From: Octopus vulgaris
Lineage: Eukaryota
DNA: 64,000 bases
Direction: 5' to 3'
NCBI GenBank assembly: GCA_951406725.2
Contig: OX597840.1
Location: forward strand, 23,126,001-23,190,000
This document shows positions 19,312 to 62,384 of the stretch, in pieces. Every line of letters begins with the position of its first letter. Within the stretch, counting starts at the first letter, position 1. The notes under the pieces are model-generated. The model was not told where the DNA came from. It searched no databases and was given only the letters and a program-made list of their open reading frames with translations. The position numbers were made by a program, and so were the translations under genes.

Positions 19312-19836
19312 CTACCCTGTATGAATACGTTTGTGTTGAGTTAAGCTGATGATTTGAGAGAATGATTTACCACAGATATCACAGGAATATGGTTTCTCTC
19401 CTGTATGAATACGTATGTGTTTCGTTAAGCTACTGCTATGAGAGAATGATTTACCACAGATATCACAGGAATATGGTTTCTCCCCTGTATGAATACGTAT
19501 GTGTTTAGGTAAGCTACTGCCATCAGAGAATGATTTACCACAGATACTACAGTGATATGGTTTCTCCCCTGTATGAATACGCTTGTGTTTGGTTAAGCTA
19601 CTGACATCAGAGAATGATTTACCACAGATATCACAGTGATATGGTTTCTCCCCTGTATGAATACGTTTGTGACGAGCAAAGCTACTCCTGTCAGACAATG
19701 ATTTACCACAGATAGTACAGTGATATGGTTTCTCCCCATTATGAATTTGTTTGTGTTGATTGAATTTACTTTCTTCTAAGAATGACTCTTTGCAGATGTC
19801 ACAGTCATATGATGATTTTCCTAATTCTTCCGACAT
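19312..19836 (-). CDS. G2: C2H2 zinc-finger protein, 6 fingers
   Basis: 174-aa [18 protein letters not shown]...HTG*. Acceptor AG at 19913-19912. Confidence 0.9.
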
Positions 19837-20956
19837 CTCTTCAAGAGAAATAAAATCGATCCATCAAGTTGTACAGATCAACAACTTTTCAATAATATTT
19901 CATGTGATTTTCTGAAAGAATAGAAAAAATAATATAAGACATAAAGTATGTTTAAAAGGCAGATATTCAAAAGTGCAAATTTACGACATTTGTGTTTTCA
20001 TAAATTGTAGAAGTAATTCTTTATCTGAACTGATGAGTAAAAAATTTAGCATAACATGGTATACACTGAAAACCACATCATTGGTAACTTATAAGCCAAG
20101 GTGATGGGTCAGAGCCAATACAAATTTCAATTTGTAGGTGATACAAAAATTTATTTCAATGAAAAGACAAAACCGTTTTCACTATGCACTCACCACCACA
20201 TCTGTCTGTGTGTATTATTTTTGTGGGAGGTTTGGATAATATTTTTTGCAAGGTAATTACATATCACATGATGAGACTGGAGAAAAGTTTGATATTATTT
20301 ATTCAGCATTACATATGTTTCATTTCCTAATAGGTATTACAAACATTTATAAGTAGATTAAAAATGTAAAAGATTTCCTATAAAAAAATCTTCGAACATA
20401 CATATGTGTGTGTATGTACCCTTGTCCAGATAGCACGTGATGCTCGTAAATGGTCATAATGAGTGTCATACAGATACAGTCCAATTCCAGTCTTCTGAGT
20501 CAAATATATCTCAGCATGGAAAATATGTCCTTGCCTAGAAACAGGTGAGGATTGGTGAAAGGAAAGGCATCCAGCTGATGAAAATCTCCATCAATGAATT
20601 CCATCTGATCCATTGAAGCATGGAAAAGTGAATGTTAAATGATGAGGATCATCATCATGATCATAGTTCGTCTTCTGTATGAATGCATTTACATTTCAAT
20701 AATTGATCCATTTTCATTGATTGATTTAGCACAAATATCTTGAGGTATAGATATATCTTTCATATTAATAGGACTGTGTACAAACAATTCACCCTTTTGA
20801 AAGAATGATTAAGCATTAATATCAGTCAATGCTCTATTGATTAGTTCATGAATGAGATGAAAGGAAAGATTTACTATAGATATCATATTCATAATATACT
20901 TTCCTTCATGGGTAGAGATTTTCCTCGGGGAATGTTATACAAGAAATATCACTGTG

Positions 20957-22162
20957 CTACGGATCCTTTGCATAACGAATGCACTTGTGTTTAATTAAGT
21001 GATGTTTTTGTGAGAATGATTTACTGCAGATATCACAATGATATGGCTTTACACCAGTATGAATAAGTTTGTGTGTCGTTAAAATACCCATTTCAGAGAA
21101 TGATTTGCCACAGACATCGCAATCATATGGTTGCTCACCTGTATGAATACGTTTGTGTGTAGCTAAGTTACCTGCCTGACTGAATGATTTACCACAGGTA
21201 TCACAGCGATATGGTTGTTCACCTGTATGAATGCGTTTGTGTCTAGTTAAATTACCTGTCTGACTGAATGATTTGCCACAGATATCACAGTGATATGGCT
21301 TCTCCCCTAAATGAATTAGTTTGTGTGTAGTTAATCTACTGCCAGCAGAAAATGATTTACCACAGGTATCACAGCGGTATTTTTTGTCACCTGTATGGAT
21401 TTGTTTGTGAATATCTAAGCTATAACTACGAGAGAATGATTCACCACAGATATCACAGGGATATGGTTTCTCCCCTGTATGAATACGTTTGTGTTTAGTT
21501 AAGCCACTCTTTTCAGTGAAAGATTTACCACATATATCACAAGGAAATGGTTTCTCTCCAGTATGGATACGTTTATGACGAGTTAAGCTACTGCTAACAG
21601 AGAATGATTCACCACAGATATCACAGGTATAAGGTTTCTCTCCTGTATGGATACGTATATGTCGTATTAAGTGACTGTCATTAGTGAATGATTTACCACA
21701 GATACTACAGTGATATGGCTTCTCCCCTGTATGAATACGTTTGTGTTGAGTTAAGCTACAGTTTTCAGGGAAAGATTTACCACATACATCACAAGGAAAT
21801 GGTTTCTCTCCTGTATGAATACGTTTGTGCCGAGTTAAGCTACTGCCAGCAGAGAATGATTCACCACAGATATCACAAGGATAAGGTCTCTCTCCTGTAT
21901 GAGTATATTTGTGTTGAGCTAGGTGACCATCATTCGAGAATGATTTACCACAGATACTACAGTGATATGGTTTCTCCCCCGTATGAATACGTTTGTGACG
22001 AGCAAAGCTACTCCTGTCAGACAATGATTTACCACAAACAGTACAGTGATATGGTTTCTCCCCTGTATGAATTTGTTTGTGTTGATTGAATTTACTTTCT
22101 TCTAAGAATGACTCTTTGCAGATGTCAAAGTCATATGATGAATTTCTTAATTCTTCCGACAT
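20957..22162 (-). CDS. G3: C2H2 zinc-finger protein, 14 finger positions
   Basis: 401-aa ORF with TGEKP linkers. First finger has C>F. Ends [10 protein letters not shown]. Acceptor at 22592-22591. Confidence 0.93.
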   Translation of the reverse strand: MSEELRNSSYDFDICKESFLEESKFNQHKQIHTGEKPYHCTVCGKSLSDRSSFARHKRIHTGEKPYHCSICGKSFSNDGHLAQHKYTHTGERPYPCDICGESFSAGSSLTRHKRIHTGEKPFPCDVCGKSFPENCSLTQHKRIHTGEKPYHCSICGKSFTNDSHLIRHIRIHTGEKPYTCDICGESFSVSSSLTRHKRIHTGEKPFPCDICGKSFTEKSGLTKHKRIHTGEKPYPCDICGESFSRSYSLDIHKQIHTGDKKYRCDTCGKSFSAGSRLTTHKLIHLGEKPYHCDICGKSFSQTGNLTRHKRIHTGEQPYRCDTCGKSFSQAGNLATHKRIHTGEQPYDCDVCGKSFSEMGILTTHKLIHTGVKPYHCDICSKSFSQKHHLIKHKCIRYAKDP

Positions 22163-59871: not shown

Positions 59872-60786
59872 TATGCATATATATTATTTTTGTGGGCGGT
59901 CTGGATGATATTTTTTGCAGAGTAATTACATAACACATAAAGGACAGTGGAGAAAAGTTTGATATTATTTATTCAGCATTACATGTGTTTCATTTCCTAA
60001 TAGGAATTATAAACTATTAGATGTGTAGAGAACATGTAAGTTATTTCCTATAAGAAAATTTTCAGACATACATAAGTGTGTGTGTGCACCCTTGTCCAGA
60101 TATTATGTGGTGTTCATAAATGGCCATCATGACTGTCATACTTCTGTAGTTGTTCATTTCCAGTCTTCTGTGTAAAATATGTCTCACCAGGGAAAATATT
60201 TCCTTGCTTGGAAACAGGGAAGGTATCAATGAATTCAATCTGATCCATAGAAGAATGTAAAAGTGAATGTTAAATGATGAGGATCATCATCATCGTAGTG
60301 TTATGGTTCCTCTTCTGTTTGAATTCATTTATGTTATAATTGATCATTATCAGATATCCTAGGGTATGGCATATTCTTCATATTAACAGGACTGTGAACA
60401 AACAATTCACCATTTTGAAAGAATGATTCAGGTTTAACATCACAGTGATATGTTTTCCTTCCTCTGTCAATGCTCTTTTGATTCAATAATGGATGATTTC
60501 ATGTCAAAGATTTACTATAGATGTCACATTCATATAGTTTCTATATTCTGTGGATGTCTTTATAAGATACGTCCTTTGTCCTTCTGAGGAAATGTTATAC
60601 GACAAATATCACTGTGTTATGGACCCACTTCATAAGGAAAGACTTCTGTTTAAATCAGAAATGATTTTGTGTAAATGATTTGCCACAGATACCAGTGAAC
60701 TGATTTTTCTAGAGTGTGAATGCATTTGTGTTTAGTTAAGTGACTGTTTCCAGAGAACGTCCACAATTATCACAGGGGTATGGTTT

Positions 60787-61731
60787 CTACCCTGTATGAA
60801 TACATTTGTGTTGAGTTAAGCCACCATTCTGAGAGAATGATTTACTACAAATATCACAGCGATATGGTTTCTCCCCTGTATGAATACGTTTGTGTTGAGT
60901 TAAGCCACTGTTCTGAGAGAATGATTTACTACAAATATCACAGCGATATGGTTTCTCCCCTGTATGAATTCGCTTGTGTTTAGATAAGCTGCTGTTTTCG
61001 GCGAATGATTTACCATAGATATCACAGGGGTATGGTTTCTCACCTGTATGAATACGTTTATGTATAGTCAAGCTACTGGTTTCTGAGAATGATTTACCAC
61101 AAATATCACAGGAATATGGTTTCTTCCCTGTATGGATACGTGTGTGTTTAGTTAAGCTGCCGCTTTGAGAGAATGATTTACCACAGACATGACAGTGATA
61201 AGGTTTCTCTCCAGTATGAATACGTTTGTGTTTAGTTAAGGTATAGCAAGCAGAGAATGATGTACCACAGATATCGCAGGGATAAGATTTTTCTCCTGTA
61301 TGGATACGTATATGTCGAGTTAAGTGACTGTGATTAGAGAATGATTTACCACAGATATCACAGGAATATGGCTTCTCTCCTGTATGAACCCTTTTGTGAG
61401 TAGTTAAGTTACAGCTTTGATAGAATGTTTTACCACAGATATCACAATGATATGGTTTGTCCCCTCCATGAATCCGTCTGTGAGTAGTTAAGATTCTGCA
61501 ATCAGAGAATGATTTACCACAGATATCACAGTGATAGGGTTTCTCTCCTGTATGAATATGTTTGTGGTTAGTTAAGCTACTCTGAACAGAGAATGATTTA
61601 CCACAGATATCACAGTGGAATGGTGCTTCCTCTGTATGAATTTGTTTGTGTTGATTGAATTTACTTTCTTCTAAGAATGACTTTTTGCAGACTTCACAGT
61701 CATATGATGATTTTCCTAATTCTTCAGACAT
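60787..61731 (-). CDS. G8: C2H2 zinc-finger protein, 11 fingers
   Basis: 314-aa ORF ending HTG*. Acceptor at 62158-62157. Confidence 0.93.
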   Translation of the reverse strand: MSEELGKSSYDCEVCKKSFLEESKFNQHKQIHTEEAPFHCDICGKSFSVQSSLTNHKHIHTGEKPYHCDICGKSFSDCRILTTHRRIHGGDKPYHCDICGKTFYQSCNLTTHKRVHTGEKPYSCDICGKSFSNHSHLTRHIRIHTGEKSYPCDICGTSFSACYTLTKHKRIHTGEKPYHCHVCGKSFSQSGSLTKHTRIHTGKKPYSCDICGKSFSETSSLTIHKRIHTGEKPYPCDIYGKSFAENSSLSKHKRIHTGEKPYRCDICSKSFSQNSGLTQHKRIHTGEKPYRCDICSKSFSQNGGLTQHKCIHTG

Positions 61732-62384
61732 CTCTTCAAGAAAAATAAAATCGATCCTTCAAGTTGTACAGATCAACAACTTTTCAATAATATTTCTCCT
61801 CTCACCAACATTTATGGATATTTTCTTTTTGCTTTTATAGTTTATTCCAAACAAATATCACTTTTCTTATATTTCTTCTAAATGTGATCAATGCCAATAT
61901 TTAAAAATGTCACAAATACTCTTTGGAAATCTATCAAAGTATATTTAAAAGAGAAAATTATCTCTTGCACATTTCGGACACAGAAGTAAAGAAATGCTTT
62001 CTCTCTCAGAGGAAATATTTTACTGTAATTCAGCAATGTTTTATAGAAGCAGGATTATACGTTTGTATAATATCTTTGCAGAGTCTTTCAAACATGATAC
62101 ATATTGATGATTCTTTAAAAGTAAAAAATACTTTTTAGCCAATTTCATGTGATTTTCTGAAAGAATAGAAAAAATAATATAAGACATAGAATATGTTTAA
62201 AAGGTAGATATTCAAAAGTGCAAATTTATAACATTTCTATTTTGCTAAATTGTAGAAGTATTAAACTTATCCAATCTCATCATTTTTAAGAAGTTTCTAT
62301 CATAGAGTGGACACATGTATTATAATAACAACTCCTAGACACACCAATGAAGCAGGAAAATCTGTGACAATGTATTAATGTAAA

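Follow-up and report, generated by a model that had tools for sequence, protein, structure and literature searches.

The C2H2 zinc-finger (ZNF) genes in a 64-kb stretch of an Octopus vulgaris chromosome (G000:C27:23126001-23190000, contig OX597840.1; the whole stretch is called the window here, and C27 positions given below lie on the same chromosome) are very likely mosaics, formed by repeated germline recombination between paralogs that acted anywhere along the intron, leader, finger array, and 3′ untranslated region (UTR). Mosaicism is found in every region, junctions in the array are in register and give new finger orders, and donors come from both strands and from each of the family's two sub-clusters. 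We infer that homologous recombination is the cause.

The minus strand of the window carries eight C2H2 arrays with an 84-bp period, G1 to G8, whose ATGs are at positions 5705, 19836, 22162, 27994, 35489, 40780, 50617, and 61731, in that order. With tandem fingers joined by TGEKPY linkers in clustered genes, they are of the poly-C2H2 (Kruppel) type, and they belong to a family of ~90 tandem two-exon C2H2 genes on one chromosome, spread over two sub-clusters 3 Mb apart. An exact motif from the gene heads has 60 matches in the genome, 58 of them on C27, and the ~860 kb that we read around these (which contain three gaps of 100 N) hold 93 heads, split 50 to 43 between the two strands; 68 open a reading frame (ORF) with at least five fingers. 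The units share one layout – acceptor, leader, single coding exon, and a conserved degenerate tail followed by the UTR. A contig from a run guessed to be RNA links the acceptor with sequence ending at a genomic GTAAGT donor, and under a strict rule 58 of the 93 heads have an exon-1 match of their own (many others have a partial match), and the genes are therefore described as two-exon; a single first exon serving many ZNF exons was rejected on the same count. Among the runs listed as holding the sequence, none is registered as RNA. G2 and G6 have no exon 1 of their own.

The ATG lies only nine codons upstream of finger 1, and no KRAB, SCAN, or BTB effector domain is among the 25 best Pfam matches for three proteins, a search in which exon-1 coding was not looked at. 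Searching with the G3 protein gave distant ZNFs only, with at most 61% identity among the 120 listed of 3713 matches, and none of six window proteins was present as an exact match in the protein collection searched, from which no orthologues were retrieved. Eleven tandem copies of the exon-1 motif, spaced 8-14 kb apart and ending in a single exact head motif, lie at G000:C2:14.64-14.74 Mb, and appear to be a related array on another chromosome. Twelve copies on C27 (at 22.89-23.00 Mb and 26.11-26.29 Mb) have ATA in place of ATG, yet long frames remain open (up to 1014 codons), and an in-frame ATG lies 16 codons downstream.

A first-pass annotation of the window had drawn attention to markers at the two ends of the genes, and most of these stand. 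G2, G4, and G5 share a leader deletion of 352-353 nt in which the same segment is gone between two GAAAT motifs (ATTTC on the plus strand); 352 nt are missing relative to G3, and the acceptor-to-ATG distance is 75 nt in G2 vs 428 nt in G3. This short leader occurs in five of the 92 heads examined. A long leader is present as described in G1, G3, G7, and G8, but G6 retains only its last ~120 nt, the 5′ part being an inverted piece of 3′ UTR. G2, G7, and G8 have a common HTG-TAG ending within a many-site tail. The YAKDP tail assigned to G3, G4, and G6 is common to them as DNA, but G6 is frameshifted before the tail and G4 ends in YAKDPIVV; in TAG-type genes the YAKDP region is homologous and is located behind the stop. 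G2 and G3 have the SDRSSFAR finger in common, and all four combinations of short or long leader with TAG or YAKDP tail are present. The short-leader combinations go beyond chance, as an approximately unbiased (AU) test on the proximal tail (three rows) rejects the three testable short-leader genes as a single tail clade (p 0.0002).

That a simple duplication tree cannot give this pattern, as the first-pass annotation had proposed, is borne out across the family. Separate trees for each region, built from the 74 genes in which both head and tail are complete (copies with gaps, degeneration, or truncation, including G4, G5, and G6, were excluded), conflict with one another, and the pairwise homoplasy index (PHI, in our own implementation) gives p 0.001 for each of leader, tail, and UTR. 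When the heads are made to follow the tail topology, 732 log-likelihood units are lost, compared with 224 ± 42 in 12 clonal simulations (maximum 293); placing the proximal tail on the UTR tree costs 887 vs 160 for clonal data, and placing the two UTR halves on each other's tree costs 583 vs 202. The AU test on the proximal tail also rejects the 12-member, many-site ATA-start head group as a clade (p 1e-45). Different regions with incompatible trees are a mark of ectopic (non-allelic) recombination.

Heads and tails are largely but not wholly uncoupled. Head and tail distances among 72 long-leader genes correlate with r 0.20 (Mantel p 0.008), against 0.57 (head) and 0.86 (tail) in a within-region control comparing odd with even columns. 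Among 89 tabulated genes, at least three of which the motif rules misfiled, five of the six head types occur with two or more tail types, and the head-tail association persists in permutation (p 0.001 for the whole table, 0.036 when limited to the three main tails). The earlier description of heads and tails as shuffled "independently" is too strong; weak linkage remains.

We painted 76 complete units by copy paths and checked every switch from either side; 63 of the units have a switch supported by at least five differences on each side. Switches occur at 1.2 per kb in the leader, 2.05 in the array, 0.92 in the proximal tail, and 1.39 in the UTR, against 0.09, 0.38, 0.20, and 0.07 per kb in a clonal run that was matched in divergence and let fingers be gained and lost, which was used in place of two clonal runs of too high divergence that overstate false switches. 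The upstream intron, painted without a null run, likewise appears to draw on several donors.

Crossing-over or conversion specific to the 84-bp arrays had been proposed as the source of new finger orders. Some crossovers are indeed inside the array, at homologous, in-register positions with identifiable parents, but specificity of the process to the array is not supported. The observed ratio of array to non-array switch density, 1.7, is reproduced by uniform exchange (1.7, 1.7, and 1.4 in three runs), whereas a threefold array excess gives 2.7 and array-only exchange ~10; the array is therefore exchanged like any other part of the unit, and only the consequence is special, namely a new in-frame finger order. 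Exchange is not concentrated in the array in the manner of a PRDM9-like minisatellite, and leader alone and UTR alone are each mosaic by PHI. We accordingly regard as unlikely the alternative that crossovers fall mainly in the 84-bp repeats and simply re-pair intact heads and tails. The array does have the highest raw switch density, clear array crossovers exist, and tail clades are deep and partly coherent; but the false-switch rate is also highest in the array, in leader and UTR an array-only simulation yields 0.2 switches per kb where 1.2 and 1.4 are observed, and the UTR halves reject a common tree. For the short leader itself, the change of partner falls between its deletion and finger 2, either at the 5′ edge of the array or ahead of it.

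Individual genes illustrate the mosaic structure. In G5, a short head like that of G2 extends to about +76 and is followed by the array, the tail, and 3 kb of 3′ flank of the long-leader copy A23314453. G2 resembles G3 in its first two fingers and G7 from finger 3 on. D26218693 follows D26136041 (0-2 differences per 84 nt) as far as finger 12, and then D26174947. In the short-leader copy A23431871, a 162-nt patch directly behind the junction has one difference from the long-leader copy A22889268.

Recombination along the whole unit would be accounted for by germline gene conversion and unequal crossover between paralogs, probably in tracts a few hundred bases long and, in some cases, by long exchanges. 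The median spacing of supported switches is 207 nt, donor pairs are on the same strand in 57 cases and on opposite strands in 64, and they are more than 1 Mb apart in 45 of 121; this short spacing, together with strand-indifferent and distant donors, suits conversion. In G5 and D26218693, the pattern resembles a long exchange or a crossover. With fingers built as 84-nt units, array junctions would stay in frame and yield proteins with new DNA-binding specificity. "Combinatorial assembly", the phrase used in the first-pass annotation, should not be taken to mean a programmed process, as the divergence of mosaics from their donors points to old germline events. Programmed or somatic assembly, as in V(D)J joining or antigenic variation, was considered and is not supported: none of the 76 genes is within 0.5% of its donor mosaic, and the junctions are scattered.

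Several observations weigh against recombination of this extent and uniformity. The simulations are our own, with one replicate per setting and simple indel and rate models, and they leave room for a mild array excess of up to ~1.5-fold. A return to the first donor is seen in 9 of 152 adjacent switch pairs, so that conversion and crossover are inseparable here. No variant is common to all five short leaders. On the assembly side, contigs of four public runs on G2-G3 are too short to bridge the junctions, and no read or second haplotype spans one; in the sub-cluster at 26.1-26.3 Mb, the youngest chimeras share ~99% identity with each parent, and an assembly gap is close by.

These last points, together with the repetitive nature of the cluster, the three gaps in 860 kb, and the 5 of 76 copies less than 1% from their donor mosaic, would favor chimeras assembled between collapsed near-identical copies, an explanation that we nonetheless consider highly improbable. 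The median distance to the best mosaic is 2.6% (2.8-8.4% for window genes), with none of the 76 below 0.5% and 62 of the 63 switching genes at 1% or more, and the window sequence contains no N. Two combinations – short leader with YAKDPIVV, and short leader with SDRSSFAR and TAG – each recur in two diverged copies that lie on opposite strands, ~285 kb from each other. Both this recurrence and the distance of the mosaics from their donors argue against assembly chimeras for the window.

Nor is there much to be said for clonal duplication with recurrent mutation, in which the deletion and the stop arose repeatedly and the remaining conflicts are homoplasy; a 5-nt microhomology could favor recurrent deletion, the short leaders have no variant in common, and the leader tree is weak because leaders are just 3.5-5.5% diverged, but the TAG tail is a many-site haplotype and not a point change, conflicts are clustered in blocks family-wide (PHI), and simulations with rate variation fall far short of the observed conflict, making this account extremely unlikely. 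Independent deletions with different breakpoints had been named as a way in which the marker pattern might mislead, but all five short leaders break at one site among 99 possible 5-nt microhomology pairs, and they are chained together by rare shared variants. One origin is therefore favored, with the deletion probably having arisen once by microhomology and later moved onto other bodies.

The deleted leader segment was also considered as an intron, a possibility rejected by the lack of GT-AG or AT-AC ends in any microhomology register. It contains upstream ATGs, with five in the long leader (22223-22579) and two in the short leader, and its loss might change translation. Behind the in-frame TAG, an intact C2H2 finger (helix SGNSHLT) is retained in about 25 copies of the cluster (e.g. 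window 19237-19314 and 49420-49507), and TAG readthrough, for instance through A-to-I editing that turns UAG into UIG, may be a candidate idea. Contigs from public runs at 19313 have no T>C row and are too weak to judge editing.

The genes of the window, all on the minus strand, differ in detail. The G1 coding exon ORF (4956..5705) encodes 249 aa with seven fingers, behind a long leader and ahead of a divergent tail. The G2 ORF (19312..19836; 174 aa, six fingers, HTG-TAG tail) has its short-leader GAAAT junction at 19897..19901, and its post-stop finger, degenerate tail, and 3′ UTR (18420..19311) have two supported donor switches. The acceptor of G2 is ~390 nt behind the end of the conserved G3 UTR (window 19911-20300), and from this position directly behind G3, and with no exon 1 of its own, G2 may be a pseudogene or an alternative last exon of G3. 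The G3 ORF (20957..22162; 401 aa, YAKDP tail) is preceded by the long-leader segment with two GAAAT ends that is missing from short-leader copies (22223..22579), by the splice acceptor of the coding exon (22590..22592), joined to the upstream exon by the contig of the guessed RNA run, and by an approximate exon-1/donor homology (23794..24120). G3 is collinear with one outside copy from -190 to the end of the UTR, covering array and tail, with 59 mismatches in 2052 nt.

The G4 ORF (26786..27994; 402 aa, YAKDPIVV tail) and its short-leader junction (28055..28059) have a close paralog 285 kb away on the opposite strand with the identical head-tail combination. G5 (34698..35489; 263 aa, short-leader junction at 35550..35554) has a third tail type, VEKTSP. 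G6 (39236..41003) is a frameshifted copy with a truncated long leader and a YAKDP tail in DNA only; the frameshift stops its ORF at 100 aa, and it is likely a pseudogene. Its 5′ end is replaced by an inverted copy of 3′ UTR and flank (41002..42033, plus strand), 94% identical to 48724-47689. Two copies near C27:23.055-23.063 Mb have a similar UTR-to-leader fusion in direct orientation. G7 (49505..50617; 370 aa) and G8 (60787..61731; 314 aa) both have a long leader and HTG-TAG tail, and a non-coding exon 1 upstream of G7 (54447..54780) has a GTAAGT donor at ~54477, with a second copy near 52430.

Isolated finger remnants lie at 22866-22955, 28494-28713, and 51317-51503, in introns of G3, G4, and G7, and at 31995-32286, behind G5. 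Broken Rep/helicase frames at 10252-15055 and 30343-31137 are presumably Helitron-like, judging by their motifs, and retrotransposon frames at 42829-46776, which we take to be Gypsy-like, are flanked by a 264-nt, 99% inverted match (42599-42861 / 47689-47426). Palindromic (fold-back) elements, 76-96% self-complementary, are at 3023-3397, 7115-8021, 8118-8391, and 62774-63364.

The finger minisatellite of PRDM9 rearranges in register in 84-bp steps to give new finger orders, within one gene and its alleles. The octopus cluster differs in that dozens of paralogs exchange, flanks included, and in having no PR/SET domain. In vertebrate poly-ZF paralogs, gene conversion occurs, whole fingers are gained and lost, presumably by recombination, and contact residues diversify (Emerson and Thomas 2009, PMC2604467, in part). 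These sets are like ours in the exchange between paralogous C2H2 genes, but, in the same part of that study, tracts are short and in few genes per set (in most genes for two chicken sets), whereas 63 of 76 octopus genes are mosaic, UTR and leader included. Unlike the vertebrate proteins, the three octopus proteins have no KRAB, SCAN, or BTB among their 25 best Pfam matches. A young mouse KRAB-ZFP cluster on Chr4 is recombinogenic, with strain-specific finger arrays and non-allelic homologous recombination proposed, although the part of the account cited describes multi-gene segmental duplication driven by endogenous retroviruses and long interspersed elements, not junctions internal to ZNF exons (PMC12575710, in part). 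Unequal crossover and conversion between clustered paralogs are likewise known from the chimeric HBB/HBD fusions of the tandem beta-globin family (PMC4041002, in part), and homogenization by gene conversion has been suggested for coleoid protocadherins (PMC9068888, in part); in contrast to both, the octopus genes are built of modular 28-residue units, and a junction can change the order of the DNA-binding modules without breaking the frame. The octopus family is a new case of a known process – ectopic recombination between paralogs – notable for its extent.

The expansion of cephalopod C2H2 genes into large, lineage-specific clustered families (PMC12513265; PMC9068888, both in part) is a headline feature of these genomes, and is analyzed by whole-protein trees. 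The main text of one such study, supplements being outside our scope, has no occurrence of 'recombination' or 'conversion' and treats the genes as a duplication tree (PMC12513265), and we found no report of recombination between cephalopod C2H2 paralogs in the titles and abstracts searched (supplements and subscription papers being outside their scope). If most copies are mosaic, whole-protein trees, orthology calls, and duplication ages are unreliable for such clusters, and analysis at the level of fingers or regions is required. The cluster also offers natural trios of two parents and a chimera, among which binding could be compared.

Exchange between genes would be a route to new DNA-binding proteins, more pervasive than has been reported for mammals in the sources cited here. 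By crude counting over 581 nearest-finger pairs, the ratio of nonsynonymous to synonymous change (pN/pS) is 1.37 at contact positions vs 0.07 at structural positions, the latter class being partly forced by the motif filter; the contact-position value is compatible with selection on specificity, short of a formal test. The low structural value and the 68 heads with open frames point to coding constraint on the fingers. Targeting of transposable elements has been proposed for octopus ZNFs from predicted motifs (PMC10547256, in part). A broader possibility, which we put forward tentatively and think doubtful as a whole, is that the ~90 effector-less ZNF genes form one recombining pool and exchange almost like alleles, so that new multi-finger specificities would outpace point mutation and contact residues would then be selected (pN/pS ~1.4). 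The family might in that case act as a family-wide, PRDM9-like generator of DNA-binding diversity in cephalopods, e.g. against transposons, with repertoires that would differ between individuals.

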